A DNA stretch of 64,000 nucleotides. It comes from Actinomycetota bacterium. Its GTDB lineage: Bacteria; Actinomycetota; Acidimicrobiia; Acidimicrobiales; Poriferisodalaceae. Location of the stretch: the NCBI GenBank assembly GCA_039197885.1, contig JBCCTY010000001.1, forward strand, positions 1,088 to 65,087, written 5' to 3'. The position numbers were made by a program, and so were the translations under genes. Below the pieces are notes generated by a model. The model was not told where the DNA came from. It saw only the letters and a list, made by a program, of their open reading frames with translations, and made no database searches. This document shows positions 7,226 through 54,100 of this stretch, piece by piece (the stretch's first letter is position 1; every line of letters begins with the position of its first letter).

Positions 7226-8179
7226 TTGGACATCACGGAAGGTGACGGGCATTCTGACCGTCCCTCGCAACGGGCCACCGCCTCGGAAGGCGCTCAGGTG
7301 GGACGCGGCCCGAACACCTCAACGACGATCCGCCGCTACGTGAAGGAGCGGGATCGGCTCTCCTGGGCGGAGAGCACCTCGAAGACCTCCCGGTGGGTGC
7401 TCCACGACTTCCAGCGCGCTGCGCCGAAGCGAGTCACCGAGGTCCGCCCGAAGCACGTGTCCAAGTGGCTGCGGAGCAGACGCAACGGCCGCATCCCGAA
7501 GGACACCACCCTCCGTACCCGGCTCTCGATCGTGCGAGCCTGGGGCGACTGGCTCATCGACCAGCGCATCGTGAAGGCCAACCCGACCGCCGGTCTCACC
7601 ATCCGGGCCGAACGGCCGGCGATCCCCCGGGCGATCCCCGCAGACGCCGTCCCTCGCCTCCTGGAGGCGTGCCCCGACGAACGAGCACGAGCCATCGTAC
7701 TGCTCTCTCTTCACCTCGGGCTGCGGCGCGCCGAGCTCGCCGGTCTCCGCATCGGCGACATCGACATCGGCCGCCGGCAGCTCGTGATCCGCGGGAAGGG
7801 CGGGTGGACCGACGTGATGCCGGTCCCCGAGGAGGCATGGATCGCGCTCATCAGCTACCTCGCCGAGCATCCGGCCTCGAGCGGGCCGCTGTTCCGGTCC
7901 TTCGTCACCGATGAGGCGCTCAAGCCGGCGTGGATCTACCGCATCACCGCGACCGCGCTCTATGACTCCGGGATCAAGACCGGCCCGCACGACGGCATGT
8001 CGTTGCACTCGCTCCGCCACCGCATGGTCCTCGACGTCCTGGAGCGCACGAAGGACCCGCAACGGGCCCGGCTCGCGTCTCGGCATCGGTCGTGGGCCGG
8101 GTTCCAGGCGTACACGAACGTGACCCTACGAACCGACGACCTGACCGAGATCCTGGATGGTCGCCGCTACCGGCCGTGA
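7226..8179 (+). CDS. tyrosine recombinase / phage integrase
   Basis: C-terminal catalytic region LGLRRAELAGLRIGDID, HSLRHRMVLDVL, and a Tyr near the end (FQAYTNV). The ORF opens with TTG at 7226, so the true start may lie downstream. Confidence 0.85.
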   Translation: MDITEGDGHSDRPSQRATASEGAQVGRGPNTSTTIRRYVKERDRLSWAESTSKTSRWVLHDFQRAAPKRVTEVRPKHVSKWLRSRRNGRIPKDTTLRTRLSIVRAWGDWLIDQRIVKANPTAGLTIRAERPAIPRAIPADAVPRLLEACPDERARAIVLLSLHLGLRRAELAGLRIGDIDIGRRQLVIRGKGGWTDVMPVPEEAWIALISYLAEHPASSGPLFRSFVTDEALKPAWIYRITATALYDSGIKTGPHDGMSLHSLRHRMVLDVLERTKDPQRARLASRHRSWAGFQAYTNVTLRTDDLTEILDGRRYRP

Positions 8180-8397: not shown

Positions 8398-8793
8398 CTA
8401 TGCCCAGCACCACTCCGACTCTGACCAGGGCGCACGGCCGAGCTCGGACCGGAGGCCCTCGGTGACGAGCACCTGGACGTCGACGTCGGTGTAGAACTCG
8501 GCGAGGGTGGCGCCGTCGCCGTGGCGGGCGACCCGGTCGGCGAGGTACCGCTCGGCGTGCTGGGCGAGCCCGACGTGGCTGCCGTTGCGAGCGTCGGGAT
8601 CGAAGGCCGATTCGCAGGCCATCATCCGCAGCGTCCAGCCCTGGTGCAGGAGCGGCACGTGGCGGTGCACGGCGTCGGCGACGTCGTCGGGCACCTGGTG
8701 GGTGCCGTTGGCGACGGCCACCGTGTCGGGCACGAGACCGACGGTGTGGAGGTACACGGCTGCGGCTGCGACCACGACGAGCAGGACGCGCAT
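8398..8793 (-). CDS. membrane-anchored lysozyme-like / transglycosylase (SLT/Rpf-like) protein
   Basis: N-terminal hydrophobic segment MRVLLVVVAAAAVYL and the motif CESAFDPDARNGSHVGLAQH (CES...GL.Q). The ATG at 8793 shares a base with the upstream stop. Confidence 0.6.
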   Translation of the reverse strand: MRVLLVVVAAAAVYLHTVGLVPDTVAVANGTHQVPDDVADAVHRHVPLLHQGWTLRMMACESAFDPDARNGSHVGLAQHAERYLADRVARHGDGATLAEFYTDVDVQVLVTEGLRSELGRAPWSESEWCWA

Positions 8794-10475
8794 CAGGCCG
8801 CTCGGCGGCCGTGGTGCTTCCCGGCGCACGATCGGCACATCGGCGCGAGGTTGGATGGCTCGAGGTTCGCGCGGTCACCGTCGACCGGAACGACGATCAC
8901 CTGCCGGTCGGCGCGGTTCGACCAGTCGAGCTGCTTGCCGCATCGGTCGCCAACGCAGCGCGGGTGTTCGCCGGCGAGGCTCGTCCAGAGCGCGAGCGCT
9001 GTCGAGGCGACGGTGCCGTCTCGCTTCCGGGCGAGTGGATGATCAGGTAGGTGCACGCGTGCGGGCGGCTCATCCCGCTGCGGGGTGACGCTCTGAGAGG
9101 CCGTCTCCGGGTCGTTGGGCACCTGACCCCGCAACCAGTGCTCGATCTCGTCGCTGAGGGGTGTCTCCGTCGCTGTCGCCGAATCCTGAGGGGGGTGAGT
9201 GAGGTAGGGGGTGGGGCCCTCGGTCTCTGTGGGTCGAAACGGGGGGGTGTGGCCGGTTCCACCCCCCTCCGGTCCACCCCCCTCGCGGGGATCGGGCATG
9301 GCGCGTCGTGGTGCGTACCGCTCGACGACGCTCGGGATCTGGTCGTCAGGAAGCCATGCGTACTGGACTCGTTGGGGCACGCTCATCCCGGCGGAGATCA
9401 TGAACGCCTGGCCGCTGTTGATGGGCAGCAAGTGCGCAGGGGTCTGGTCCGCAAACGAGCCCATCACCACCTCGACGTCGCTGCGCTGGGAGAGGTGCCC
9501 GCAGGACCGGGCAGCGAAGTTCGCACGGATCTCGGTGTCGACCGAGCGATGCCCGGTGGTCTGGGTGGAGGCCACGACCATGACCCCGTCCTTGCGATGC
9601 TCCTTCACGAGCTTCCAGACGAGTCGCGCTGCTGCCTTGTTCGTTAGGACCTGGTGGAGCTCGTCGATGAACACGACGATCGGGGCCGGTCGGCCCTGGA
9701 GGTCACGGCACTGGTACAGGCTGGACCGGCGGTGCGACCGGATCCATCTGCGGTTCGCCTCGGCGTGTTCGACGACTTGCCGGAGCACGCTGGCCCAGTC
9801 CTTGGACTCGAGGGCACAGCCGGTGAAGACCTGTCGGTCGCCGAGCTCCTCTGCTGCGTCAAGCCATCGGGCAGCGTCGACCTCGCCTGGGTCGATGAGG
9901 TACATGTGCACGCCACCACGTGCCAGGTAGCCAGCCATCATGATCGTGGTGAGAGCGGTCTTGCCGGCACCGGTGAGGCCAGCGATGAGGACGTGCGGGG
10001 CGGGTTCTCGTTCGCCTGGGACGGCTTGGACGAGGGTCTTGCCGTTCATGGTCTGGCCGAGCCAGATGTAGGGCGTGTCGCGGTCGCCGGTCGGGGTCCA
10101 GAGCAGAGGTCCGGTGGGTCGTGCTCGGAGATCGATCGCGAGGCGTCCCCGTCGGGAGCCGAGGCCGTTGTCGGCGAGGACCTCGATGTGGGTGGCTTCG
10201 AGGTCCTCGGCCAGACCGGCGGCGACCTTCGCGATGTCTTCGATCTGGCCGCCCATGGGGCACTGCACCGCGAAGATGTAGAGGCCGTCTCGGACGAGCT
10301 CGGGCGCGCCGAGACTGGGCCACTCCTCTCGCTTCGTTTCTCCGATGCCGACCTTGCGGACCAGGCCCCTGGCGGCGCAGGCCTCGTCCCACAGCTCCGC
10401 TACTTGGGTCGGGGTGTAGGAGGCGCGGTCCGAGGGGAGTGATGTGAGGCGCTGCCAGGCGCTGCGGATCCCCAT
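8793..10475 (-). CDS. FtsK/SpoIIIE/TraB-type P-loop DNA translocase with C-terminal degenerate HNH/zinc-finger module
   Basis: Walker A GLTGAGKT, Walker B VVFIDELH and a Pro/Gly/Thr linker. The C-terminus reads C-x4-C ... NLAPMCRSCAGKHH, which is HNH-like but lacks the first DH. Confidence 0.8.
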   Translation of the reverse strand: MGIRSAWQRLTSLPSDRASYTPTQVAELWDEACAARGLVRKVGIGETKREEWPSLGAPELVRDGLYIFAVQCPMGGQIEDIAKVAAGLAEDLEATHIEVLADNGLGSRRGRLAIDLRARPTGPLLWTPTGDRDTPYIWLGQTMNGKTLVQAVPGEREPAPHVLIAGLTGAGKTALTTIMMAGYLARGGVHMYLIDPGEVDAARWLDAAEELGDRQVFTGCALESKDWASVLRQVVEHAEANRRWIRSHRRSSLYQCRDLQGRPAPIVVFIDELHQVLTNKAAARLVWKLVKEHRKDGVMVVASTQTTGHRSVDTEIRANFAARSCGHLSQRSDVEVVMGSFADQTPAHLLPINSGQAFMISAGMSVPQRVQYAWLPDDQIPSVVERYAPRRAMPDPREGGGPEGGGTGHTPPFRPTETEGPTPYLTHPPQDSATATETPLSDEIEHWLRGQVPNDPETASQSVTPQRDEPPARVHLPDHPLARKRDGTVASTALALWTSLAGEHPRCVGDRCGKQLDWSNRADRQVIVVPVDGDRANLEPSNLAPMCRSCAGKHHGRRAA

Positions 10476-10476
10476 C

Positions 10477-11244
10477 TCAGATCTTGATCATCTTGGTGGC
10501 GGTCCACGGGGTGAGGACCGCTGCGGCGATGATCAGCACGGCCTTGGATGCGACAAGGATCGCCATGGAGGTGCCGCCCATCCCGACGATCCAGAGTGGC
10601 GCGATGGGGAGCTGCAGGAGGAACGTGCCGCGGCCGTAGGCGAGGATGAACCCGGTGAGGAGCAGGTAGACGGTCTGGGTGAACACGGCGAACGCCATGG
10701 CTTGAGCCAGGAAGTCGAGCTTCTCGCCCTGCTTGCGGAGGCGCCATCCGACGCTGAGCACGGACCACATGATGACGACGAACACCAGCACGCTCGAGCT
10801 GATGAATGCTCGGTCAGGCAGGTAGATGGTCCAGGCCACGAAGCCGCAGAGCGTCATGCCGGTGAAGAACCATCGGCGTGCCGGGCCCCGTCCGTGGCGG
10901 GACCAGCTGACGAAGGTGACGGTCAGGGTGAAGGCGAAGAAGCTGATGAGGCCGATGACCCAGACGGTCGGCACCTCGCCTGGCTGACGTCGGAGCGGGT
11001 GGGTCCAGTTGTCCCCGGCGAGGGTCAGGTTGTAGTTGCCGATCTGGAGGTCTTCGCCGGCGAGGTCGAGGAGGATCCACCAGAGGTGGCAGGAGCTGTA
11101 GACCCAGGCCGCAGCGAACAGCGCGACCCTCGGGGAGAGGTTTCCGAAGAGGCCCCGCCAGAGCGCGCCCGGGGTCGCCGGGCGGCGCTTGGGTTCTGGT
11201 CGTTCCCGGGTCTCGACGGTCTCAGTGACGTCGAGGATCTCCAT
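10477..11244 (-). CDS. polytopic integral membrane protein (at least 6 hydrophobic segments)
   Basis: 255 aa, Trp/Phe-rich hydrophobic stretches. 1-nt gaps to both neighbouring genes. Confidence 0.7.
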   Translation of the reverse strand: MEILDVTETVETRERPEPKRRPATPGALWRGLFGNLSPRVALFAAAWVYSSCHLWWILLDLAGEDLQIGNYNLTLAGDNWTHPLRRQPGEVPTVWVIGLISFFAFTLTVTFVSWSRHGRGPARRWFFTGMTLCGFVAWTIYLPDRAFISSSVLVFVVIMWSVLSVGWRLRKQGEKLDFLAQAMAFAVFTQTVYLLLTGFILAYGRGTFLLQLPIAPLWIVGMGGTSMAILVASKAVLIIAAAVLTPWTATKMIKI

Positions 11245-36514: not shown

Positions 36515-36793
36515 ATGGCCAACTGGTACCCGACGAACGTGAACGAACGAGACCCGTGGGGCATGGCGTTCTACGAACAGCGCGGTTATGAGCTCTACCC
36601 GACGTCGGCCAACAACCGGGACGAGTGGGGAACGCCCGCCTTCCGGATCGACGGCAGGCACGTGTACCCGTCGAGGACCAACACCGACTACCGAAGCGGG
36701 CGGGTCGCCTTCGAGATTCGCGACTCGCAGGTCTTCCCGGCGCCCGAGAACAGCTACTACCCGCAGGGCCATCCGGTGTTCGACATCCGCTGA
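36515..36793 (+). CDS. plus-strand moron: 92-aa protein made of four ~22-aa [YF]P-x3-N-x2-[DY]-x2-G-x3-F repeats
   Basis: High GC3 on the plus strand, whereas the antisense ORF is Arg/Val-rich. The four repeats are read directly from the translation. Confidence 0.6.
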   Translation: MANWYPTNVNERDPWGMAFYEQRGYELYPTSANNRDEWGTPAFRIDGRHVYPSRTNTDYRSGRVAFEIRDSQVFPAPENSYYPQGHPVFDIR

Positions 36794-37936: not shown

Positions 37937-38646
37937 GATGCCTCCCGGTGGTGGACCTTGGGCCACTTGCCTCGGTCTCGGTGGTGTTGGAGCTCGGCGA
38001 TCGACGGGGCCCGCAGGTGCCTCGACGCGAACGTGTGGCAGCTCTTGCACACTGGGATCCGGGGCGGCTCTTCGCCTGCGTCAGCGACGAGCGGGCCGGC
38101 GTTGCGGTCCCCGATCCTCGGCTCGTCGCCCTCGCGCATGACCTGGCCGTGCCAGCGGCAGGCGGGCCGCCACTTGGTGCCGTCCCACACCGTGTCGGTG
38201 CCTTCCTTGCCGGTGGTCTCGGCTTCGACCGTGGCGGTGACCTTCAGGATCGCGAACCGCAGGCGCCTGGTCGCGGCCTCGGCCTCCTCGGCGGCTTCGA
38301 GGATCTCGCGCTCGAGCTGACGGCTGTGCTGTCGTCGGGATCGTCGACCCTCGACGCGTGCGACTGCACCTGCCTCGACGGAAGTGAGTGGCACGGTGAC
38401 CTTCCGGTCGGGGTGCTCGGGATCGTCGATCTCGGCGCCGCCACCTCCGCGACCGGTGCCGTCGAGGTTGGGCGAGCGAAGGCCGTCATCAGCGTCGTCG
38501 ACATCGGGGTCGTCGAGCAGCGTCAGCGCGAGCTCGAGGCGGGACATCTTCGGTCGGCCGGACACCTTCACCTCGTCGCTGACGTGGAGCATGTCGCGGC
38601 GCGCCTGGTCAACGACGCCGGGAAGCCGGCCTCGGGGGATGCTCAT
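37933..38646 (-). CDS. hypothetical replication-module protein with C-terminal Cys/His cluster
   Basis: 237 aa. ATGA overlap with the DUF3987 stop. Acidic N-terminal half, with CRWHG...CKSCH in the C-terminal half. Confidence 0.5.
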   Translation of the reverse strand: MSIPRGRLPGVVDQARRDMLHVSDEVKVSGRPKMSRLELALTLLDDPDVDDADDGLRSPNLDGTGRGGGGAEIDDPEHPDRKVTVPLTSVEAGAVARVEGRRSRRQHSRQLEREILEAAEEAEAATRRLRFAILKVTATVEAETTGKEGTDTVWDGTKWRPACRWHGQVMREGDEPRIGDRNAGPLVADAGEEPPRIPVCKSCHTFASRHLRAPSIAELQHHRDRGKWPKVHHREAS

Positions 38647-40391
38647 GCTGCGTCTCCTGGGTCGGGGTCGGGTAGGGCGTTGGCGCCGGCGATGAGCTCG
38701 TCGAGGAGTTCGTCGTTGGCGACGACGTGCAGCGAACGGTCGTTCGGTTGGCGCGCATGGCGCGCAGATCCAGGTTCAGGGGCAGAGGGAGTGCTCAGGG
38801 AAGGAGGAGGAGGAACGCGCGAACCTTTAGTGACATGCGCGCCATGCGCGCCACCTTCGTCGACGCTGAGTGGTTCTGACCCGTTTCCGTGGTCAAGGTG
38901 GCGCGCATGGCACAAGGTGGCGCGCAGGTCGGGGTGGCACTCGAACTCGTTCCTCTGGCCTCGCTTCGGGGTCCGCCAGTTGGGCCGGAGGGGCCTGACG
39001 AGGTCTCGCTCGACGAGTCGGGCGACGAGGTCGAGGAGTTCCTCGGCGGTGTCACGGGACCGCCGGAAGCGGCCACCACGGTTGATGTCCCGAGTCGTGA
39101 AGATCGGGTTGTCGTGCTCGTTCACGAGCCAGTCGATGAGGTCCTGGGCTTCAGCCATCTCGGGGCTCAGGTCGCCGTAGGCGGCGACGGCGTGCCCGAG
39201 CCACCACTCGCCGACGGCTTCGGCGCGACGGTAGGTGTGGATGTCGACGTCGTCGTTGGGGGTGAAGCCGTCGGCGACGTGGAGGATGAGGGCGAGGCGG
39301 AGCACGGAGCTGGTGACCTTCTCGGGGATCCCGGCGAGGGGGCTCAGGGGGCCGTCGGCGCCTCGTCGTGCTTCGAGGGTGTTCCGCCAGGCGTTGAACG
39401 CGTTGTAGGCGTCGGTGGCGAGCCGGTAGGTGATGTCGTCGGTGCGGCCCCATGGGTGGGTGCGGGTGATCTCGGTGAGGTGCTCGGTCCACTGGTGGGC
39501 GGCGACGGGGTCGAGGGGGTCGATGGTGGTGTAGTCCCGCTGGCCGACGAGGGAGGGCGGCACGGCGATCATGAACCGGTCGGAGAGCCCGCGGCCGGTG
39601 AAGTCGGGGTCGGCCTTGATGAGGGACTCGACGATGCGGGGCTGCGGGGTGAGGAGCATGGTGGCTCGGGCCCGTCGGATCTGGGCTGAGCGGGAGAGGC
39701 GGCTGACCTTCACGTCGCCGCCGGACCAGGCTTGGAGGAGGGTCTGGATGTTGGCGGAGCGTCCGGTCTCGACGAGGCGGCTCACGGTGTCGAGCACGCC
39801 GGCTTCGTCGGAGAGCACGGCGACGGTGCCGCGGTTGGCGGCGAGGGCCTTCTCGAGGCTCTCGGTGTTGGTGTCGTCGAGGATCGGCTCTGGTTCGTCG
39901 GGGAGGGCGGCGTCGTCGAGGGCTTCGAGCGCGGCGATGAGCTCGTCGGTGTTGCCGCTCATCTCGGCGTCCTTCACGGCGAGCTCGGCGACCTTGCGGT
40001 GGGCGAGCGCGTGGCGGGCGGCGTCTTCGTGCTGGCGCTTCCACTGGTCGGCGAGGTCGTCGAGAGGGGCGGTGAGCGCGTTAAACACGGGGCTCTTGCC
40101 GCTCCCCGGTGGCATGGCGCAGACGAGGTAGAGGTTCGCTGCTTCGGTCCAGCCGTCGGTGACGGTGAGGGTGGCGCGGCCGTGGGTGAGCGCAGCGGAC
40201 AGGGTCCCCAGGGCGACGGTGACGGGCAGCTCGACGGGTACCCGCATGTGGGCGGCCAGGTTGTCGCACCGGGCCTGGATCCAGTGGGGGAGCACCCCTC
40301 GGGGGAACTCGGGGGCTGGTGGGGCGACGGGGAGCGGTACGGGCGGGTCCCAGGGGTCGCCGGCTCGTTGCTCGATGTCGTCGATGCTCAC
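38643..40391 (-). CDS. DUF3987-type replication protein (primase-associated helicase-like)
   Basis: 582 aa with a P-loop-like PPGSGKSPV and overall resemblance to YfjI/DUF3987 phage/plasmid replication proteins. The family call is by eye. Confidence 0.6.
   Translation of the reverse strand: MSIDDIEQRAGDPWDPPVPLPVAPPAPEFPRGVLPHWIQARCDNLAAHMRVPVELPVTVALGTLSAALTHGRATLTVTDGWTEAANLYLVCAMPPGSGKSPVFNALTAPLDDLADQWKRQHEDAARHALAHRKVAELAVKDAEMSGNTDELIAALEALDDAALPDEPEPILDDTNTESLEKALAANRGTVAVLSDEAGVLDTVSRLVETGRSANIQTLLQAWSGGDVKVSRLSRSAQIRRARATMLLTPQPRIVESLIKADPDFTGRGLSDRFMIAVPPSLVGQRDYTTIDPLDPVAAHQWTEHLTEITRTHPWGRTDDITYRLATDAYNAFNAWRNTLEARRGADGPLSPLAGIPEKVTSSVLRLALILHVADGFTPNDDVDIHTYRRAEAVGEWWLGHAVAAYGDLSPEMAEAQDLIDWLVNEHDNPIFTTRDINRGGRFRRSRDTAEELLDLVARLVERDLVRPLRPNWRTPKRGQRNEFECHPDLRATLCHARHLDHGNGSEPLSVDEGGAHGAHVTKGSRVPPPPSLSTPSAPEPGSARHARQPNDRSLHVVANDELLDELIAGANALPDPDPGDAA
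38748..38930. repeat. iteron cluster: six GGCGCGCA copies in three pairs (candidate ori) inside the DUF3987 gene 3' end
   Basis: Plus-strand copies at 38750, 38759, 38900 and 38919; minus-strand copies at 38836-43 and 38845-52. The 13-mer AAGGTGGCGCGCA occurs three times. A purine tract lies at 38798-38815. Confidence 0.6.
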
Positions 40392-40414: not shown

Positions 40415-40463
40415 GCGGCGTCGTCTATTGACTTCGATTATGCGGCGTCGGATAATGGCTTCA
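40415..40463 (+). promoter_or_regulatory. sigma-70-like promoter TTGACT-17-GATAAT with ATG 7 nt after the -10 (leaderless), bracketed by GCGGCGTCG direct repeats
   Basis: -35 at 40428-33, -10 at 40451-56, ATG at 40463. 9-mer repeats at 40415-23 and 40442-50. Confidence 0.6.
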
Positions 40464-40678
40464 TGAACGCCACGCAGATCTCGGCCACCAGCGACCGTAT
40501 CCGCCACAACGTCGACGTCATCCGCTCGACCGAGTGGTCCGACGGGCACCCCGTCGAAGAGGACGACCTCGTCCCTGGGCGCATGGCTGCCATCGGTGGG
40601 TTCTCGCTTCCCGACGAGTGCCGAGGCGGCTCCACCGACGACGTGATGCGCCTCCTGGAGTCCTGGGGCGCGTCGTGA
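40463..40678 (+). CDS. small acidic hypothetical protein (plus-strand cassette, gene 1)
   Basis: 71 aa with high GC3. Its stop overlaps the next start (GTGA). Confidence 0.5.
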   Translation: MNATQISATSDRIRHNVDVIRSTEWSDGHPVEEDDLVPGRMAAIGGFSLPDECRGGSTDDVMRLLESWGAS

Positions 40679-40830
40679 GCCAGGGCCGTGGCCGACCGGC
40701 CGTGGGTCCTCGGGTCGCGGTGCGACTGCCAGTCGACGTGCTGGCTGAGGTCGATGCGTGGGCCGAGCAGCACGACTCGACGCGTGCCGAGGTGCTCCGG
40801 CAGATCGTGACCGACTGGGCGCGGCAGTAG
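40675..40830 (+). CDS. ribbon-helix-helix (CopG/Arc-like) protein (plus-strand cassette, gene 2)
   Basis: 51 aa. RVAVRLPVDVLAEVDAWAEQHDSTRAEVLRQIV fits a strand-helix-helix pattern. Confidence 0.55.
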   Translation: MSQGRGRPAVGPRVAVRLPVDVLAEVDAWAEQHDSTRAEVLRQIVTDWARQ

Positions 40831-40834
40831 CCAT

Positions 40835-41494
40835 CTAGGCCGCCTCTCGCTGCGCCCGGATCGTGGCGTGGAGCTGGCGGCCGAGGAACTCGGTGTAGAC
40901 CGGTGGGATGGCCTGCGACAGGGTTTCGAGGGGCAGCCAGTCGATCTCCATGCCGATGCGCTGCCGAGCGATGGGGATCCGGTAGACACCGACCTCGATG
41001 GTGCGGCGGAGGTTGGTGCGGTTCGTGGCCGGCGGGAACCGCGGCGTCTGCCACCCGTGACTGCAGGGAGGAGCGACGAGGCGGACGTTGCTCTCGAAGA
41101 GGCGATGGCGACGGACATCGAGGCCGAAGCTCGAGCCACAGAGCCGCACGGGGTCCACGAGGTGTGCTGCGGCCTGCTCGACGTTCTCGATGATCCAGGG
41201 CAGTCCGGTGGCCTCGAGCAGCTCGCGGGTCTGAGGGATCAGGTTCAGGGCGCCGTCACCGACGCCGTGACCCTTCCGGCGGTAGGCGGTGGCGAACTGG
41301 CACGGCGGGGATGCGTGGACAGCGTCAAACCCGTCGGCGATCAGGCCCGGGAACTGCTCCAGGGCGTCGGCCTTGACGAACTCGAATGGGTAGTCGGGCT
41401 GGTCGTGGAGGTCGATGCCGACGACGTCAAAGCCGGCGCGGTGGTAGCCCATGGCGGCGCCACCGCCGCCGCAGAACAGGTCGAGGAGCCTCAT
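40835..41494 (-). CDS. compact DNA (cytosine-5)-methyltransferase
   Basis: DLFCGGGG (motif I), SPPCQ (IV), ENV (VI), RRHRLF (VIII), QAIPP (X). About 219 aa from ATG 41494. Confidence 0.85.
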   Translation of the reverse strand: MRLLDLFCGGGGAAMGYHRAGFDVVGIDLHDQPDYPFEFVKADALEQFPGLIADGFDAVHASPPCQFATAYRRKGHGVGDGALNLIPQTRELLEATGLPWIIENVEQAAAHLVDPVRLCGSSFGLDVRRHRLFESNVRLVAPPCSHGWQTPRFPPATNRTNLRRTIEVGVYRIPIARQRIGMEIDWLPLETLSQAIPPVYTEFLGRQLHATIRAQREAA

Positions 41495-41509: not shown

Positions 41510-41558
41510 TCGCACCCCTTCGCTTCCCTCTCGAACACCTGTTCCCTACGGTTGGGGG

Positions 41559-41765
41559 ATGGCGAGGTACGTGCTGAGGGGCGGTCCGGTGCAGCTTGAC
41601 GGGGAAGTGGTCGAGGGTCCCGGCGGGGCGCAGGAGATGGTGTGGCCGAACTACGAGTCGGGGCCGCAGCGGTCGTGTGTGCTGCGGTACCGGTCGCAGA
41701 TGGGCACGCTCGAGACGCTGGACGATGGTCGCCAGGCGATGGTGCTGCGCTTCGACGACGGGTGA
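41559..41765 (+). CDS. small hypothetical protein, plus strand, divergent from the C5-MTase
   Basis: 68 aa from ATG 41559 after TTGGGGG, with high GC3. Convergent with the next minus-strand gene, 3-bp gap. Confidence 0.5.
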   Translation: MARYVLRGGPVQLDGEVVEGPGGAQEMVWPNYESGPQRSCVLRYRSQMGTLETLDDGRQAMVLRFDDG

Positions 41766-44859: not shown

Positions 44860-45380
44860 GCCGCCCCCTCGGGCTGCGGGCGGAGCTTGTCGAGCACCGA
44901 CCAGTGCACCTTCGGCACCTCGGCGCAGGGCTGCTCGGTGAGGGCGAGGCCGATCTGGCGGAGCCACAGGGCGTCGGCCACGTTGTCGTCCTGGCCGTCG
45001 TAGCCGAGGCGGTCGCGAGCGGCGATGACCATGGCGACCTTGTCGACGTTGCCCTTGCCGGTGGCGTACTTCTTCAGCTGGGTCGGGGCGACATCGAGCC
45101 ACTCGATGCCGGCGAGCATCAGGGTGTGGCGGATAACGCCGTGCAGTGATCCGAGGCGAGCACCGTTGAACCGGGAGGCGTGCGACGGTGCCTCGATCAC
45201 CACGAGCGCATCGGCCGGCGCCTCGTAGCGCACAGCCTTCGCGATGATGTCGGCGCGTCGCACGTCGTCATCGGTCTTGCTGGTCGGCTGGATCGCCCAC
45301 GTGTCGGCGAAGGCGATCGCCGTGGCCGTGTAGCTCGGGTCGACCCCGATCACGGGCCTGGCGGCCATCGGGCGGGTCAT
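44856..45380 (-). CDS. RuvC-like Holliday junction resolvase
   Basis: IGVDPS, VVIEAP and NVADAL acidic-residue pattern. 174 aa. Confidence 0.65.
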   Translation of the reverse strand: MTRPMAARPVIGVDPSYTATAIAFADTWAIQPTSKTDDDVRRADIIAKAVRYEAPADALVVIEAPSHASRFNGARLGSLHGVIRHTLMLAGIEWLDVAPTQLKKYATGKGNVDKVAMVIAARDRLGYDGQDDNVADALWLRQIGLALTEQPCAEVPKVHWSVLDKLRPQPEGAA

Positions 45381-46711
45381 GCTGCTTCCTCTCGGTCGTC
45401 GTGCACGGTGAGCAGGAGCGGTCCGACTCGTTCGGCGGCGAGGTCGGCGTTGCGGCGGTCGAGGTCGATGCCGACGGCGTAGCGGCCGTGTCCGGTGGCG
45501 ACGGCGAGGGTGGTGCCGCTGCCGGCGAAGGGGTCGAGCACGATCCCGGGCCGGTACTGACCATCGGCGTCGGTGTCGGTCCAGCCGAGGGTTTCGGTGA
45601 TAGCCGTACGCGACGAGTCCGAGCCGATGGGCCGTGTGCTGTTGCCCGTTTTCATCCTCGCCTCGGTGAGCGATCCGCCAGGCTTCCCACCTGACTGATA
45701 GCGAGTCGCCACCACGTCACCCCGCCGGTTCATGTAGGTCGGTTCTCCCACGATCCGCCGTCGCCCTTCACCGGTGGCGATCGACACCTCGGTCGGGCAC
45801 ATGGACAGGATCGGGCGGCGGCAGAGCTCGCGGGGCCAGGTGGCGTAGTGGCTGCCCTTGTACGGCTCGGTGCTGATCTCCCACCAGTCGAGAGGTGGGG
45901 CGCTGGTGATCTCACCGATCGTGTCGAGCGTGTCGAAGTTGCCGTCGTGCTGCTCGGCTCGCTTGCCGGTGGTCTTCCGACGCTCGACACCCTTCGCCGT
46001 GCGAGAGTTGGTCTTCGGCGAGGGTGGCTGGCGCACGGCGTCGAGGTCGAACCACCGCTTCTCGTCGCGACAGGCGACCACGAGGTCCGACGTGGCGGGC
46101 CGGTACTTGTCGCCGAGCGAGCCGACCGGGGGGTTGGGTCGTGCCCAGGTGACGACGTTGCGGACCCGCCAGCGGCCGGCCGGTGACTCGGCACCGGTGA
46201 GCGGGTTGATGCCGTAGGCCAGGGCGATGCGGTAGAGCTCGGGAATCAGGGTCTTGCACTTCGCCAGGGGCCATCCCTCGTTGCGACCAGATCGCGCCGG
46301 CCGACCTCCATCCGTGATCCCGGCTTCGATGCGCTTGCGAGCCGAGCCAGACCACTGCGCCTGCGCCTCGCGCATCCCACCCTCGGCGTAGTCCCCACCA
46401 GCACCGCCGCTGCCGGAGTAGGTGTCACCGAGCTCGACCGCGAGCGAGCCCTCCGGGGAGAGCAGGTCGGCGCAGGCGGCGGTCCAGTCGAGCAGGGCGT
46501 CGAGGAACGCGGCCGGGGTGGGCTCGCTGCCCATCTCCAGGTCCTTGGCCGGGTCGTCGTCGGGGAGGTAGGAGCGGAGCGCGAGGAACGGCGGCGAAGT
46601 GAGGATCAGGTGCGCCTGCTGCGGACCCCACGGGGTTGGGATCCCACCGTTGGTGGCCCAGCGGCGCATGACGGCCCGGCTGTCGCCGATGTGGAAGTCG
46701 GCGGTGCTCAC
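45377..46711 (-). CDS. beta-class N6-adenine/N4-cytosine DNA methyltransferase
   Basis: Motif IV TSPPF near the N-terminus and motif I VLDPFAGSGTT near the C-terminus. GTG 46711 overlaps the upstream stop. Confidence 0.8.
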   Translation of the reverse strand: MSTADFHIGDSRAVMRRWATNGGIPTPWGPQQAHLILTSPPFLALRSYLPDDDPAKDLEMGSEPTPAAFLDALLDWTAACADLLSPEGSLAVELGDTYSGSGGAGGDYAEGGMREAQAQWSGSARKRIEAGITDGGRPARSGRNEGWPLAKCKTLIPELYRIALAYGINPLTGAESPAGRWRVRNVVTWARPNPPVGSLGDKYRPATSDLVVACRDEKRWFDLDAVRQPPSPKTNSRTAKGVERRKTTGKRAEQHDGNFDTLDTIGEITSAPPLDWWEISTEPYKGSHYATWPRELCRRPILSMCPTEVSIATGEGRRRIVGEPTYMNRRGDVVATRYQSGGKPGGSLTEARMKTGNSTRPIGSDSSRTAITETLGWTDTDADGQYRPGIVLDPFAGSGTTLAVATGHGRYAVGIDLDRRNADLAAERVGPLLLTVHDDREEAA

Positions 46712-46920
46712 GCCTCGTACCTCGTGCGGTAGGGCTCGGGGTCGCGTTTGGTGAACTGGCGGCGGTAGGGCACGCCGGGCTGGTCGCAACACCAGCACGT
46801 GCCGTGGGGCTGGGTGTCCCACCAGCTGGTGCCACCGTCGATGGGGCACTGCAGATGCACCCGACCGGACGGTCGGGGTTCGAGTACGGGAGATGGCGCC
46901 GCGGCGGGGAGACGGATCAT
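46708..46920 (-). CDS. small Cys/Trp-rich hypothetical protein
   Basis: 70 aa from ATG 46920 (ATGA overlap). Contains CPIDGG...HGTCWCC. Confidence 0.45.
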   Translation of the reverse strand: MIRLPAAAPSPVLEPRPSGRVHLQCPIDGGTSWWDTQPHGTCWCCDQPGVPYRRQFTKRDPEPYRTRYEA

Positions 46921-47927
46921 GACGGCATCTCGTCCCAGGTGCGGCCGTCGAGCTGCCGGCCGGCGGTCTTCTTGCCGACCCTGCTCATGATCGTCGACCG
47001 ACCGTCCCCCACATCGACCGGTTCGACGCGTCGGCCGTGCCAGCCGCCGGAACGCCACTCGCCCCACTGCTTGAAGAAGAACGCCGGGCGCTGAGCGAGC
47101 TCGACGGTGACGCCGTCGGGCAGGTCGCCGGCCGCAGCGGCTTCATCGCCGAGGCGTTCGATGCTGTGCCGGCACCCGTCCTCCGCAGGCGGGTGGCACC
47201 GGTTGCGGAGGTCGCGCACCCAGTCGGGGTGCATCGGCCGGGCCTGCGGTCCGGACTCGCCGCCGACGATGAGCCAGTCGATCCCGGTGAGGTCGAGCGA
47301 CGGGAGCGGCCCGAGCAGGGGCTCGGCGCTGATGAAACGGACAGCGGCCGGAGTGCGGCGGAGGTGGTCGGCCCGGAACGCGTACCGGTCGGACTCGATG
47401 CTGGTGCCGAGCCACACGTTCGGGATGAGCATGCCGTCCGACATGCCGCCCGGGAGGACGGGGAAACCTCGCTCCATCCGACGCCGGTTCACGTGCATCC
47501 AGAACGCCGGGTCGGTGAGGATCTGCGCCATCCGCTGCGGGCGCTTTGTCAGCACCTGGAACTGGTGGTCGGACGCGATCGACATGACCACGAACACCTC
47601 GGCCACGAACGCGACGCCGTCGGTGCCGTGCTGCTCCACGATCTCCCGTGAGAACAGGTCGCTCATGCTGTTCACGAACACCCGGCGCGGCTTCCGCCAC
47701 CGGAGGGGCTGGTCGAGCCGGTCCGGGTGGAGACGGATCTCGCCGGTGAAGCGAGCGGGCTCGCCTTCGGGGCGCACGGCGAGCCCTTCGTAGGCCGGGT
47801 GGTGGGAAAGCCGGCCGGCGGCTTCGCGGGCGGCGTAGCAGCGATCGCAGCCGGGGCTGACGTGGGCGCACCCGGTCAACGGGTTCCAGGTGACGTCGGT
47901 CCACTCGATGCCGGTCTTGCCGCTCAT
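46917..47927 (-). CDS. phage Gp37/Gp68 family protein (DUF5131)
   Basis: N-terminus TGIEWTDVTWNPLTGCAHVSPGCDRCYA is the family hallmark. Confidence 0.8.
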   Translation of the reverse strand: MSGKTGIEWTDVTWNPLTGCAHVSPGCDRCYAAREAAGRLSHHPAYEGLAVRPEGEPARFTGEIRLHPDRLDQPLRWRKPRRVFVNSMSDLFSREIVEQHGTDGVAFVAEVFVVMSIASDHQFQVLTKRPQRMAQILTDPAFWMHVNRRRMERGFPVLPGGMSDGMLIPNVWLGTSIESDRYAFRADHLRRTPAAVRFISAEPLLGPLPSLDLTGIDWLIVGGESGPQARPMHPDWVRDLRNRCHPPAEDGCRHSIERLGDEAAAAGDLPDGVTVELAQRPAFFFKQWGEWRSGGWHGRRVEPVDVGDGRSTIMSRVGKKTAGRQLDGRTWDEMPS

Positions 47928-49141: not shown

Positions 49142-49158
49142 CTAGGCTCCTGGTGTCG

Positions 49159-49197
49159 GAGCCCCCGGTCCTCGTCTGCCAGGACGGCCGGGGGCTC
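49159..49197 (-). terminator. strong stem-loop (10-bp perfect arms GAGCCCCCGG/CCGGGGGCTC) inside the early operon
   Basis: Arms at 49159-68 and 49188-97, with an inner TCCT/AGGA extension. No U-tract follows on the minus strand. Confidence 0.4.
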
Positions 49198-49203
49198 TGG
49201 TGT

Positions 49204-49305
49204 TCAGCGGGTGATGCGGACGCGGGCGTCGGCGAGCAGGTGCGCCCAGGCAAGGGCGACGAAGGGCGCCGGGATCAGCAGCAGGTGCAGGGGGCGCTCG
49301 GTCAT
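49204..49305 (-). CDS. 33-aa hydrophobic micro-protein
   Basis: MTERPLHLLLIPAPFVALAWAHLL... with an ATGA overlap to the upstream ORF. Confidence 0.35.
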   Translation of the reverse strand: MTERPLHLLLIPAPFVALAWAHLLADARVRITR

Positions 49306-49469
49306 CGGCGACCCTTCACGGTGATGACGTGGGTGCCGTTGGGGTACGTCTGGACGCTCGCCTGATAGCAGGTGCCGGCGCAGACCAGGACGTAGTCGTC
49401 CTCGATGTCGATCGACTGCACGTCCTCGATGTCGTCGAGGTCCATGCTCGTGACGCGAACCGCCATCAC
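49302..49469 (-). CDS. 55-aa hypothetical protein (not in ORF track)
   Basis: Hand translation (V)MAVRVTSMDLDDIEDVQSIDIEDDYVLVCAGTCYQASVQTYPNGTHVITVKGRR. High GC3 and coupled at both ends. Confidence 0.45.
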   Translation of the reverse strand: MMAVRVTSMDLDDIEDVQSIDIEDDYVLVCAGTCYQASVQTYPNGTHVITVKGRR

Positions 49470-50263: not shown

Positions 50264-50493
50264 GGGAGGGTCACCATCCCGGCCGCGTTGAGGCCGTAGA
50301 AGATGGCGCCCATGCCGACGGTTCCGCCGGCGAGGCGGGTGATGAGCCCTCCGCCGAGGTGTGCGCCGATGAAGAACGCTCCGGCGGCCAGAGCGGCGAA
50401 GAGGCCGAGCTGCTCCTGGTAGCTGGTGACGAGCACCGCGGCGAGCAGGAGGAGGCCGATGGTGACGGCCATGAACATCGAGTCGGGCTTCAT
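50260..50493 (-). CDS. 77-aa Gly/Ala-rich membrane protein
   Basis: Hydrophobic segments FMAVTIGLLLLAAVLV and GLFAALAAGAFFIGAHLGGG. ATGA overlap with the HTH gene stop. Confidence 0.5.
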   Translation of the reverse strand: MKPDSMFMAVTIGLLLLAAVLVTSYQEQLGLFAALAAGAFFIGAHLGGGLITRLAGGTVGMGAIFYGLNAAGMVTLP

Positions 50494-50690
50494 GCCGCAC
50501 CACCAGCCGGGTGGGCCTCGCGCGAGGTGCTCTGCTCGAGCGCCTCGACGTCGCTGATGCGGATTCGGTACTGGCCGCCCGGCAGACGGAAGTAGGGGAG
50601 AGTGCCCGCCTTCATCCAACGGGTGACCGTGTCCCGGTGCACCCGCAGCCGCTCGGCCACCTCGTTGATCGAGAGGGTGTTCTGCGTCAT
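50490..50690 (-). CDS. excisionase/MerR-type HTH protein (Xis or Cro-like early regulator)
   Basis: LSINEVAERLRVHRDTVTRWMKAGTLPYFRLPGGQYRIRISDVE. ATG 50690 after GGGAG. Confidence 0.7.
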   Translation of the reverse strand: MTQNTLSINEVAERLRVHRDTVTRWMKAGTLPYFRLPGGQYRIRISDVEALEQSTSREAHPAGGAA

Positions 50691-50700
50691 GGCTCCCATC

Positions 50701-50770
50701 GTTGCCACGCCATGCTGCAAATGTCAACACGATGCCGCAACAGTCGGAGAAGGGTGGCAATTGCGGGCAT
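50701..50770. promoter_or_regulatory. immunity-region operator-like repeats (TTGCRGCAT x3; GTTGCCAC/GTGGCAA inverted repeat)
   Basis: ATGCTGCAA at 50712-20, ATGCCGCAA at 50732-40, TTGCGGGCAT at 50761-70. A minus-strand TTGACA lies at 50727-22. Confidence 0.45.
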
Positions 50771-50784
50771 CGTCCCGTAACGTC

Positions 50785-51045
50785 ATGCATATGAGCGCAG
50801 GGAGTGACGTACTAGAGGCGATGAAGCGGCTGAGTGGTCACACGGATGTGTCCATCTCGGAGGCGACGGGCATCCATCGCGACCGACTTCAGCGAATCCG
50901 GCGCGGACGGAGCTCCGTGACAGCCGACGACATCGTCGTCCTGTCCGAGTTCTTCAACGTCGAGCCTGCGAGCTTCTTCATGCAGGTAGAGGAGGCCGTG
51001 GGCCACTTCATGGAGAGGAACCAGGTGATCAGCGCATCTAGATGA
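50785..51045 (+). CDS. XRE/cI-like HTH repressor
   Basis: SISEATGIHRDRLQRIRRGRSSVTADDIVVLSEFFNV. Alternative starts at 50791 and 50821. Confidence 0.7.
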   Translation: MHMSAGSDVLEAMKRLSGHTDVSISEATGIHRDRLQRIRRGRSSVTADDIVVLSEFFNVEPASFFMQVEEAVGHFMERNQVISASR

Positions 51046-51170
51046 ACTGCGCGTTCGACACGGGGGCGAGGCTACCGGCGGCATCCGCCGCGGCGGGGGA
51101 GCAGGAGCTCGGATCGGCGGTGTCGGAAGGGGCCCGGATCCGGGTCGTGGCGCCCGGTACGCTCCGGTTC

Positions 51171-54100
51171 GTGGCGCTTTCCGATGACTCCCTGCTCGGG
51201 CCGAACTCCTGGCTCGTCGACGAGATGTACGACCGCTGGAGGGAGAACCCCTCCTCGGTGAGCTCCGAGTGGCAGGAGCACTTCGCCAACGGGGGAGGGC
51301 CGGCGATCGACACCGAGCTCGCGAGCCCGCCGAGTCCCGCCCCGCCGCCGGCCGGCAACGGGTCCACCGGCAACGGGTCCACCGGCAACGGCGCAGCCGC
51401 CGCCCCGTCAGCCGCCCCCGCCCCCGCCCCCGCCCCGGCGCCGGCCGCCCCCGCCCCGGCAGCTCCCTCGCCGAAGCCCGCCGCCCCGTCAGCCGCCGCC
51501 GAGGAGCCCGAGGGCGAGCCACTCCGGGGTGCTGCCGCCCGGATCGTCGCCAACATGGAGGCCAGCCTCGAGGTCCCGACGGCGACGAGCTATCGCCAGA
51601 TCCCGAGCCGCCTGATCGAGGTGAACCGGGCGGTGATCAACAGCTACCTCGGGCGCATCCGGGGCGGGAAGGTCTCCTACACCCACCTGATCGGCTACGC
51701 GGTCATCCGGGCCATGGACGAGATCCCGGGCATGCGCCAGACCTACGTCGAGGGACCCGACGGCAAACCACGCGTCATCAAGCACGAGCACGTCGGACTC
51801 GGCATCGCCGTCGACGTCGAGAAGTCCGACGGCAGCCGATCGCTGCTGGTGCCCGCCATCAAGGAGGCGGGAGCGATGGACTTCAAGGGCTACTGGCAGG
51901 AGTACGAGTCGCTCATCCGCAAGGTCCGCGACAACAAGCTCTCGGTCGACGACTTCTCCGGCGCCACGCACAGCCTGACCAACGTGGGGACCATCGGCAC
52001 GCTCCAGTCGGTGCCGCGCCTGATGCCGGGCCAGGCCGCCATCATCGGCGTCGGGGCCATCGACTTCCCGGCCGAGTTCCGGGGGAGCGACCCCGTGAAG
52101 CTCGCCGAGTTCGGCATCTCCAAGGTCATCACGGTCTCGAACACCTACGACCACCGGGTGATCCAGGGCGCCGAGTCGGGCCTGTTCCTCAAGCGAGTCG
52201 AGGAGCTCCTGCTCGGGCAGGACGGCTTCTACGACGACCTCTTCGCCACGCTCGACGTGCCGTACGAGCCCGTGCGCTGGCGGCGTGACGTCAACCCGAT
52301 CGACCGCGAGGGCACGCTGCTCCAGAAGCAGATGCAGGTGCGCAAGATCATCCAGATGTACCGGGTCCGGGGCCACCTCATCGCCGACCTCGACCCGCTG
52401 CGGATGCGACCACCGTCGCTGCACGCCGAGCTCGATCCGGCCACCTACGGCCTCACGATCTGGGACAACGACCGGGAGTTCCTGACCGACGACCTCCCCG
52501 GCCCCGACCGGATGAAGTTCGGCGACATCCTCCACCTGCTGCGCGATGCCTACTGCCGGACGATCGGCGTGGAGTACATGCACATCTCGGATCCGAAGGA
52601 GAAGTCCTGGATCCAGCAGCGCGTCGAGGGGCCGCAGGCGGAGTTCACCTCCGACGAGGTGGTCCACATCATGCGTCGGCTCAACGCCGCCGACGCGTTC
52701 GAGAAGTTCCTCCACAAGCGCTACGTCGGCCACAAGCGGTTCGGCGTCGATGGAGGCGAGGCGGTCATCCCACTCGTCGACGCCATCCTCCAGGAGGCGG
52801 CCGACGACCGACAGGTCACGGCCTCGGTGATCGGCATGGCGCACCGAGGACGGCTGAACGTCCTGTCGAACATCATGAACAAGTCGCTGGGCCGGATGTT
52901 CCTGCAGTTCGAGGGGGGCGTCGACCCGAGCACCGTGCAGGGCTCCGGCGACGTGAAGTACCACCTCGGTCAGAAGAGCACCTTCACCAGCCAGGCCGGC
53001 AACGACCTCGACGTCGAGCTCGCGGCGAACCCGAGCCACCTCGAAGCGGTCGACCCGGTCGTGATCGGCATGGCCCGTGCCCGCGAGGACATCACGCCGC
53101 CTGCCGGGTCCTTCCCGGTGCTGCCCGTCCTGCTCCACGGCGACGCCGCCTTCGCCGGCCAGGGCGTGGTCGCCGAGACCCTCAACATCTCGAAGATCCC
53201 GGGCTACCGCGTGGGCGGCACCGTTCACGTCGTCATCAACAACCAGGTCGGCTACACGACGCCGCCGAGCCAGGCTCGCTCCTCGGAGTACGCCACCGAC
53301 GTCGCCAAGATGGTGCAGGCCCCGATCTTCCACGTGAACGGCAACGATCCCGAGGCGTGCGTGCGAGTGGCCCGCCTGGCCTACGACTACCGCCAGGAGT
53401 TCCACAAGGACGTCGTCATCGACATGCTCTGCTATCGGCGTCACGGGCACAACGAGGGCGACGATCCCAGCTACACCCAGCCGCTGATGTACCAGCGGAT
53501 CGACGAGATGAAGTCGGTCCGCGAGCTCTACGTCGAGGCGCTCATCGATCGCGGCGATCTCACGCCCGAGCAGGTCGCCGAGTTCGAGGCCGACTTCGAG
53601 AGCCGTCTCCAGGGCGCGCTCGACGAGACCCGTGCGAACGCACCCGACGAACCGCCGACGATCGCGGCGGGCCAACATCCGCCACCCCCGCCCGACGTCG
53701 AGACCGGCGTCGACCGCGCCGTGCTCGATCGGATCCATACGGCCTTGAACGACCTGCCGGAGGGCTTCACGCTCCACCCGAAGCTGGCCAAGCAGTTCGC
53801 GACGCGGACGAAGATGTTCGAGTCGGGCGAGGCCGACTTCGGGTTGGGTGAGACCTTCGCCTACGGCTCGTTGCTGCTGTCGGGCACACCGGTGCGCATC
53901 GCCGGGCAGGACTCGCGTCGGGGCACCTTCGCCCACCGCCACGCCGTCTACCGCGACTACCACACCGAGGACGAGTACTTCCCGCTGCAGTCGCTCTCGG
54001 ACGACCAGGCCACCTTCTGGATCTACGACTCGATGCTGTCGGAGTACGCCGCGCTCGGCTTCGAGTTCGGCTACTCGACCCAGCGTCCGGAGACCCTGGT

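Follow-up and report, generated by a model that had tools for sequence, protein, structure and literature searches.

We analyzed a 64,000-nucleotide (nt) window of contig JBCCTY010000001.1, from an Actinomycetota bacterium, and describe here a plus-strand prophage cassette at positions 40415-40830 in which a near-consensus promoter precedes two small open reading frames (ORFs), orfA and orfB, the second of which specifies a protein of the ribbon-helix-helix (RHH) type. As read from its sequence, the cassette is a well-formed but unsurprising case of a familiar design, a prophage accessory operon with predicted autoregulation by its RHH protein. Stated in full, our reading is that the cassette would be an autonomous, self-limiting, RHH-autorepressed and leaderless accessory operon built like the acr-aca operons (anti-CRISPR and anti-CRISPR-associated genes) or like arc-ant of phage P22, and we give this full version about an even chance.

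Promoter and predicted leaderless start

The sequence-only reading had picked out a near-consensus promoter, TTGACT and GATAAT separated by 17 nt (40428-40456), and its coordinates proved correct. In a scan of both strands of the 64-kb window under a single rule, this promoter was the best of two sites, agreeing with the consensus at 10 of 12 positions, which makes it the best sigma-70-like match in the window; a consensus promoter scan likewise returned it as the sole site between 36 and 46 kb, where shuffled sequences predict 0.3. The hexamers are rare in a window of 70% GC, with GATAAT occurring once, TTGACT twice and TATAAT not at all, and the intergenic region upstream of orfA that holds the promoter (71 nt) has a GC content of 55%.

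The placement of this promoter relative to orfA points to a leaderless transcript. We took as the leaderless arrangement a −10 hexamer whose second base is A and whose sixth is T and that ends 6-8 nt before a first-codon ATG or GTG, with no Shine-Dalgarno (SD) motif, and the orfA promoter has each of these features. The A of the orfA ATG, at 40463, lies 7 nt past the last T of the −10 hexamer, and no SD motif was found ahead of this ATG, unlike most genes of the prophage, which are preceded by GGAG, GAGG or AGGA. Because of this spacing and the missing SD motif, the orfA mRNA is predicted to be leaderless, with its transcription start coinciding with the ATG, as the sequence-only reading had also proposed.

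The same geometry recurs elsewhere in the window. TANNNT is scarce, with 13 sites per strand, and at least five of these sites lie 7-8 nt before the starts of genes with good coding signal (Table 1), where we estimate that about 0.1 such coincidences would arise by chance given some 75 gene starts and 128 kb of two strands. An XRE-family gene has the same arrangement (TAACGT at 50778, ATG at 50791), as does the probable true start region of kgd, with its −10 hexamer at 51158. Judged by these sites, the organism evidently makes wide use of leaderless mRNAs, and the geometry of orfA is in keeping with this. We regard a promoter driving a leaderless operon as highly probable on sequence grounds. 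TA dinucleotides are also very scarce across the whole window, and many of the few TANNNT sites are found 7-8 nt 5′ of start codons; mapping them is therefore a useful predictor of leaderless genes in this genome.

Two small genes ending in a ribbon-helix-helix protein

Codon statistics, which had been named beforehand as a way in which the plus-strand genes might fail, favored the orfA and orfB frames. The GC content at codon positions 1, 2 and 3 is 0.64/0.51/0.89 in orfA and 0.85/0.50/0.83 in orfB, the same pattern as in the flanking genes (0.71/0.48/0.88 and 0.73/0.50/0.87), and the minus-strand ORFs that overlap the cassette lack it. In the orfA frame, the coding signal begins only at about 40420-40480, and for this reason a longer ORF of 119 codons that opens at 40319 is not taken to be the gene.

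The proposed two-gene layout was borne out at every coordinate: the 71-amino-acid (aa) orfA is followed by the 51-aa orfB, whose GTG start overlaps the orfA stop in GTGA and is preceded by the SD-like motifs GGAG and GGGG. As had been described, orfB ends (TAG, 40828-40830) 4 bp from the stop of a convergent C5 cytosine DNA methyltransferase gene (40835-40837, minus strand), and the cassette is antisense to its neighbors, convergent with the methyltransferase gene and divergent from a gene for a DUF3987 helicase-like protein. A terminator scan of the convergent junction was empty, and folds of both strands were no more stable than shuffles (z of about +0.2); as the 4-bp gap holds no terminator-like structure, read-through antisense transcription is to be expected in both directions. 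The GC content of the cassette (0.675) is near that of the prophage (0.698), which argues that it is not a recent import from a genome of different composition.

The second gene had been taken for an RHH gene, and profile, predicted structure and structural comparison all agree. OrfB scores 22.7 bits against Pfam RHH_1, above the cut-off of 20.5, and 22.7 bits against RHH_5, below the cut-off of 26; it also matches PHROG 4738, annotated 'transcriptional repressor' (3.1e-8), and, weakly, a HicB-like Pfam family (E = 0.013). AlphaFold2 (AF2) models the monomer with a mean predicted local distance difference test score (pLDDT) of 88 as an extended arm followed by helices at residues 20-32 and 37-50, so that profile score and beta-alpha-alpha fold both place orfB in the RHH superfamily. 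The fold takes up residues 12-50 of 51 and leaves no toxin-binding extension. Foldseek matches are led by P22 Arc, the antitoxin Rv0298 and CopG, with probabilities of up to 0.99, and the top 50 matches in the Protein Data Bank (PDB) are essentially all RHH proteins, with E-values of at least 0.08 because the domain is tiny; the best, P22 Arc, has 30% identity over 36 residues, a probability of 0.99 and an E-value of 0.08. A PDB sequence search with orfB returned only noise, and a word-indexed search returned no candidate, not even orfB itself, because orfB was not called as a gene on the source contig. As predicted by these models, orfB is a bare DNA-binding domain of the Arc/CopG type. Among sequenced phages, it comes closest to mycobacteriophage RHH proteins (Fruitloop gp72, QueenHazel gp63 and Babsiella gp70; PHROG 4738), with about 50% identity over 40 residues at marginal E-values (5e-3 to 1e-2); these differ in being 67-77 aa long, and their genes are co-oriented with their neighbors and have no orfA-like partner.

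OrfA, by the same kinds of search, is a true ORFan, without a relative in some 15 billion proteins. A word-indexed search of 5.8 billion clusters gave only its self-match, and an exhaustive HMMER search of 1.84 billion representatives gave orfA itself plus one spurious protein (P0002), which we rejected as a relative since it is a repeat protein matched via five stretches. There was no match to orfA in Pfam, PHROGs, PADLOC or NCBIfam, and no tblastn match in 50,697 phage records.

Candidate operators, proposed mechanism and alternatives

The promoter is overlaid by a repeated element. The 9-mer GCGGCGTCG stands at 40415-40423 and again at 40442-40450, and it extends to a 21-nt direct repeat (R1 and R2 in Table 1) with 17 of 21 positions identical and starts 27 nt apart; in R2, the 9-mer occupies the 3′ end of the spacer, and the remainder spans the −10 hexamer and reaches the start codon. 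When the 71-nt intergenic region was shuffled 2000 times with its dinucleotides preserved, no shuffle gave a repeat pair of this quality, and 1.1% of real windows of that length from the same sequence did; for an exact repeat of at least 9 nt, the shares were 0.8% (shuffles) and 6.7% (real windows). The 21-nt repeat, a candidate regulator site within the core promoter, is thus moderately unusual, at about the 1% level.

On the reading that we prefer, host RNA polymerase with the housekeeping sigma factor would use TTGACT-17-GATAAT and begin at the A of the ATG at 40463, giving a leaderless bicistronic mRNA. The orfA 'payload' would be translated from the 5′ end of this mRNA, and orfB would be translated by coupling through the GTGA overlap together with its own GGAG/GGGG motif. 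Accumulating orfB would then bind the repeated element GCGGCGTCG-nn-TAwTGrCTTC, which in R1 covers the −35 hexamer and in R2 the spacer, −10 hexamer and start site, and in doing so would exclude RNA polymerase and cap expression. Some limit of this kind would be required, for the promoter points head-on at the C5-methyltransferase gene and the minus-strand early/replication operon, with no intervening terminator; left unchecked, it would transcribe antisense through the methyltransferase gene and run into early and replication transcription. OrfA itself might be a host-directed or counter-defence factor, made upon entry and, weakly, during lysogeny. Of these steps, autorepression by the RHH protein seems to us fairly probable. 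If the reading is right, the cassette would be a compact example of accessory-gene expression by a phage of an uncultured marine actinobacterial lineage, in which a minimal RHH protein brakes a consensus promoter that yields a leaderless mRNA, the whole set head-on against the phage's own early genes, and the promoter and RHH gene could be put to use as a compact autoregulated part for expression in high-GC hosts.

Known systems offer precedents for this architecture. Promoters of acr-aca operons have near-consensus −35 and −10 hexamers with the regulator site inside the core promoter (PMC9410906), within a general operon architecture described in PMC9410906 and PMC6765145. According to a 2026 preprint (bioRxiv 10.64898/2026.07.27.740549), the RHH-type regulator Aca14, which has a long helical extension, represses both the operon that encodes it and a neighboring anti-defence operon, and restriction-modification or methyltransferase genes can accompany Aca14-type operons. 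The cassette has the acr-aca layout of a strong promoter, a small payload gene and then a DNA-binding regulator in the same operon: its promoter is near-consensus with repeats inside the core, its first gene is small and poorly conserved, its last encodes a small DNA-binding protein that we predict to be an autorepressor, and it lies in a prophage beside an anti-defence-type gene, the orphan methyltransferase. An RHH regulator in place of a helix-turn-helix (HTH) one has a precedent in Aca14. The cassette differs in that its candidate sites are repeated in direct orientation, 27 bp apart, where an inverted repeat is typical; in that the 51-aa orfB lacks the long helical extension of Aca14; in its predicted leaderless transcript, which would make RNA control through a 5′ untranslated region impossible; and in its host, which is Acidimicrobiia-like and actinobacterial, not proteobacterial.

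Taking this operon architecture together with the neighboring orphan methyltransferase, we consider a counter-defence or host-directed function the most likely one for orfA, a suggestion by analogy that we make tentatively. If this reading is right, the recently recognized control of anti-defence operons by RHH-type regulators would extend to Actinomycetota and to leaderless transcripts, and a 71-aa ORFan would be flagged as a candidate inhibitor. The more specific proposal, in which a phage of marine Acidimicrobiia makes orfA as a novel protein against host defence (anti-CRISPR or anti-restriction) from a leaderless acr-aca-type operon under a 51-aa RHH protein acting on direct repeats, appears doubtful. 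Were it true, no such operon would have been described before for this class of bacteria, and the acr-aca design would gain a leaderless variant.

A minimal RHH repressor is also known from plasmid pMV158, whose 45-aa CopG represses the copG-repB promoter through a 13-bp pseudosymmetric site. CopG is among the top Foldseek matches of orfB, and the two are alike in lacking any extra domain and in autoregulating, as predicted here for orfB, a bicistronic operon through a site that overlaps the promoter. CopG differs in being encoded by the first gene and in controlling a replication initiator, and its identity to orfB is 12-13%.

Several observations weigh against the autorepressed accessory operon. 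The operator layout had been called classical, which holds as far as the 9-mer repeats lie where a repressor would block RNA polymerase and is otherwise an overstatement. Sixteen copies of the 9-mer occur in the window, which makes it a common word here, and known Aca operators, like the majority of RHH operators, consist of repeats that are inverted or lie close together, whereas the cassette repeats are direct and 27 bp (about 2.6 helical turns) apart, not the usual geometry of adjacent RHH half-sites. An imperfect palindrome across the spacer and −10 hexamer is an alternative operator candidate (Table 1); it is not significant, being matched in 8% of shuffles and 17% of real windows. OrfA had been described as an acidic protein of 71 aa; both length and acidity (net charge about −7) are right, and neither the acidity nor the pI is distinctive here, since the 52 prophage proteins have a median isoelectric point (pI) of 5.13 and 21% of them are at least as acidic. 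Acidity as a clue to DNA mimicry was accordingly rejected as uninformative. From its single sequence, AF2 gives a low-confidence model of orfA with two terminal helices (pLDDT 56), an unsuitable query for fold comparison. Finally, neither orfA nor the orfA-orfB pair was found elsewhere in cluster, HMMER, locus and phage searches.

Searches that started from the surroundings of the pair gave little more. No near-identical phage record turned up, and a pattern search found no relatives of the DUF3987 protein in Genome Taxonomy Database genomes or IMG/VR; the best protein homologue (55%) is on a 1.5-kb contig that starts inside the gene and so carries no upstream context. Locus searches based on the RHH protein returned only an unrelated RHH-ParE pair on an IMG/VR contig (L005, 3001-3587), in which a 90-aa RHH antitoxin gene comes first and is followed by the gene for a 104-aa ParE toxin, and a lone RHH gene on a soil contig (L006). 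The RHH-ParE pair directly follows a portal-like gene, with an AT-rich, promoter-like stretch before it.

Among alternatives, the one that survives best is a module for secondary immunity or for control of induction, after the manner of P22 immI, in which orfA would be a small antirepressor or regulator partner acting on the prophage's XRE repressor or on the lysis-lysogeny switch, and the Arc-like RHH protein would throttle its own promoter and perhaps also touch the early lytic promoter. In P22, the operon Pant-arc-ant is autoregulated by Arc, an RHH protein of 53 aa, which represses its strong promoter from a site between and over the promoter hexamers. The cassette resembles this arrangement in its minimal RHH protein of the same size, with Arc the best structural match, in the predicted co-transcription of its gene with a partner gene from a near-consensus promoter, as at Pant, and in its location away from the main immunity region. 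A box by the early promoter that mirrors the cassette box (GCGGCATCG) lends slight support, and the LexA-box-like GAAC-N4-GTTC at the −10 hexamer of a neighboring 68-aa ORF suggests that the stretch may be an induction-control area. These likenesses are set against a gene order opposite to that of arc-ant and a partner that is a 71-aa ORFan, not the roughly 300-aa Ant: orfA has no ANT or other antirepressor domain in Pfam or PHROGs and no similarity to any antirepressor family, and no further RHH gene adjoins the cassette as a Mnt-like second repressor. The identity of orfB to Arc is only about 30% over 36 residues, the shared box is weak in that a match arises by chance about as often as it fails to, and the cassette lies 10 kb from the switch. 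We therefore hold an immI-type module to be improbable. As the main immunity repressor, the cassette was rejected outright, for an XRE/excisionase-type switch sits at 50.5-51.0 kb.

A different possibility is that the promoter itself is the functional element, a convergent interference or antisense device directed at the methyltransferase gene and the early operon, with orfA incidental and the RHH protein setting promoter strength; in another form, it would be a barrier that keeps transcription leaking through in the lysogen from reaching the replication and late genes downstream. The promoter does face the minus-strand genes head-on across the 4-bp gap with no terminator, and a second plus-strand, apparently leaderless unit (41559-41765), with a convergent gap of 3 bp, brackets the methyltransferase gene from its other side. 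Interference of this sort would be a side effect of any such insert, however, and the clean coding signature of orfA (0.89 GC at third codon positions, GC3) and its predicted translational coupling to orfB argue that the proteins matter, so we rate this explanation as distinctly improbable.

That the cassette is a chance or decayed feature, an AT-richer patch resembling a promoter with ORFs that are unexpressed or relics, is somewhat less probable again. The gene caller's omission of orfB, the lack of any homologue of orfA in the searches and the ease with which long ORFs arise at 70% GC would all fit such an origin, but it would have to produce the best promoter match in 64 kb, an exact start-codon geometry, strong codon-position GC periodicity in both ORFs, and an orfB that clears the Pfam RHH_1 threshold with a confident RHH fold.

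RHH antitoxins are typically 70-95 aa long, carry a C-terminal toxin-binding tail and are usually encoded by the first gene, with a toxin of about 100 aa. A type II toxin-antitoxin or addiction-like moron with the RHH protein as its autoregulating antitoxin, one of the options in the sequence-only reading, is the least probable of all, as the cassette shares with such systems an RHH domain typical of antitoxins (Rv0298, TacA, ParD, VapB and MazE6 are in the Foldseek list, beside the weak HicB-like match), a small overlapping two-gene operon with promoter repeats and carriage by a phage, but its 51-aa RHH protein has no tail and is encoded second, none of the toxin models of Pfam, NCBIfam, PADLOC and PHROGs matches its 71-aa orfA with a net charge of about −7, and the genuine phage-borne RHH-ParE pair (L005) is quite different in size, gene order and recognizable toxin.

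Prophage and host surroundings

The cassette lies in a prophage of about 44 kb, flanked by a host ABC-F gene and by kgd (2-oxoglutarate dehydrogenase), which starts with a tyrosine integrase gene (7226-8179, plus strand), reaches to about 51.0 kb and has nearly all of its genes on the minus strand. These include structural genes and genes for a terminase small subunit, the DUF3987 helicase-like protein, an exonuclease, a RuvC-like resolvase, an N6/N4 methyltransferase, a DUF5131 protein and a WhiB-like protein. The source contig comes from a marine metagenome, and the sequence occurs in a single DNA metagenome run, in which we found one contig and no variants when looking for population variants, inversion and excision. 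The ABC-F protein of the host shares about 73% identity with its counterparts in metagenome-assembled genomes of Acidimicrobiales and Ilumatobacteraceae, from which the host is probably an actinobacterium of the class Acidimicrobiia. Repeats of at least 15 nt that could serve as att sites were not found between the two prophage ends, and the window contains no Rfam family. Coordinates of the cassette and its surroundings are collected in Table 1.

Table 1 Positions in the 64,000-nt window of cassette elements, neighboring genes and related sites
Feature	Position	Strand	Remarks
Direct repeat R1, GCGGCGTCGTCTATTGACTTC	40415-40435	+	GC-rich 9-mer, then −35 hexamer; candidate operator; reference copy
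−35 hexamer TTGACT	40428-40433	+	5/6 match to consensus
Imperfect palindrome ATTATGCGGC/GTCGGATAAT	40437-40456		8/10 pairs; spans spacer and −10; alternative operator candidate
Direct repeat R2, GCGGCGTCGGATAATGGCTTC	40442-40462	+	Candidate operator; 81% identical to R1
−10 hexamer GATAAT	40451-40456	+	5/6 match to consensus; A at position 2, T at position 6
orfA	40463-40678	+	71 aa; pI 4.43; ORFan
orfB	40675-40830	+	51 aa; minimal RHH protein; predicted autorepressor
Gap between convergent stops	40831-40834		4 bp; orfB / C5-methyltransferase
C5 cytosine DNA methyltransferase, orphan	40835-41494	−	Pfam DNA_methylase; PHROG 363, 2.5e-31
DUF3987 helicase-like replication protein	38643-40391	−	Pfam DUF3987, 5e-67; PHROG 2373 DNA helicase
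Second plus-strand unit, 68-aa ORFan	ORF 41559-41765 (unit 41531-41765)	+	GC3 0.90
Excisionase/MerR-type HTH gene	50490-50720	−	Divergent from XRE gene
XRE HTH_3 gene	50791-51045	+	Leaderless geometry from TAACGT, 50778-50783
TANNNT sites 7-8 nt before starts	Host genes 55546, 57249, 60446, 60862; phage ORF 41547		

At the right end of the prophage, the XRE gene and the divergent excisionase-type gene are probably the lysis-lysogeny switch. The likely promoter of the excisionase-type gene, on the minus strand, is TTGACA (50726-50721), 18 nt and AACGAT, followed by an ATG at 50690. A GCGGCATCG box, matching the cassette 9-mer at eight of nine positions, stands 2 nt upstream of this early-gene TTGACA (box and hexamer together at 50738-50721, minus strand), in a placement mirrored by the cassette, whose 9-mer box stands 4 nt upstream of the −35 hexamer of the orfA promoter; by our estimate, about 0.8 one-mismatch 10-mer matches of this kind are expected per 100-nt region. 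If the same RHH box acts before the early lytic promoter, counter-defence would be tied to the lysis-lysogeny switch. Just beyond, at 51042-51180, the XRE ORF ends in an overlap with the first ATG of the longest kgd ORF, and a TACGCT −10 hexamer at 51158 lies 8 nt before an in-frame GTG of kgd; this geometry suggests that kgd has its real, leaderless start some 130 nt inside that ORF and that the end of the prophage falls between the two.

The probable start of the C5-methyltransferase gene is the ATG at 41494 (MRLLDLFCGGGG), its longest ORF opens at 41515, and the call on the source contig is of 219 aa. On the side away from the cassette, the gene is flanked by the plus-strand, apparently leaderless 68-aa ORFan, whose stop lies 3 bp from that of a convergent minus-strand gene of 94 aa. 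Here TCGAACACCTGTTCCC, a Cheo/SOS-box-like GAAC-N4-GTTC, abuts a TACGGT −10 hexamer (41547-41552) located 7 nt before the ATG at 41559, and GAACNNNNGTTC occurs three times in the window against 0.63 expected; from these motifs, the ORF may be a LexA-controlled leaderless small gene. Two other small plus-strand ORFs have coding-like GC3, at 36515-36793 (92 aa, also called on the source contig) and 49153-49365 (70 aa), and neither matches any family.

The prophage carries two DNA methyltransferase genes, that of the C5 type beside the cassette (40835-41494) and one of the N6/N4 type (45377-47927, minus strand) followed by the gene for the DUF5131 protein, and no restriction enzyme was recognized. 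The excisionase-type HTH protein (50490-50720) weakly matches MAD1. Adjoining the integrase gene and flanked by unannotated ORFs is a gene for an FtsK/HerA-type ATPase of 560 aa (8398-11244, minus strand), which matches the PADLOC model mad8, of methylation-associated defence (5e-18), and the left end of the prophage may carry defence cargo.

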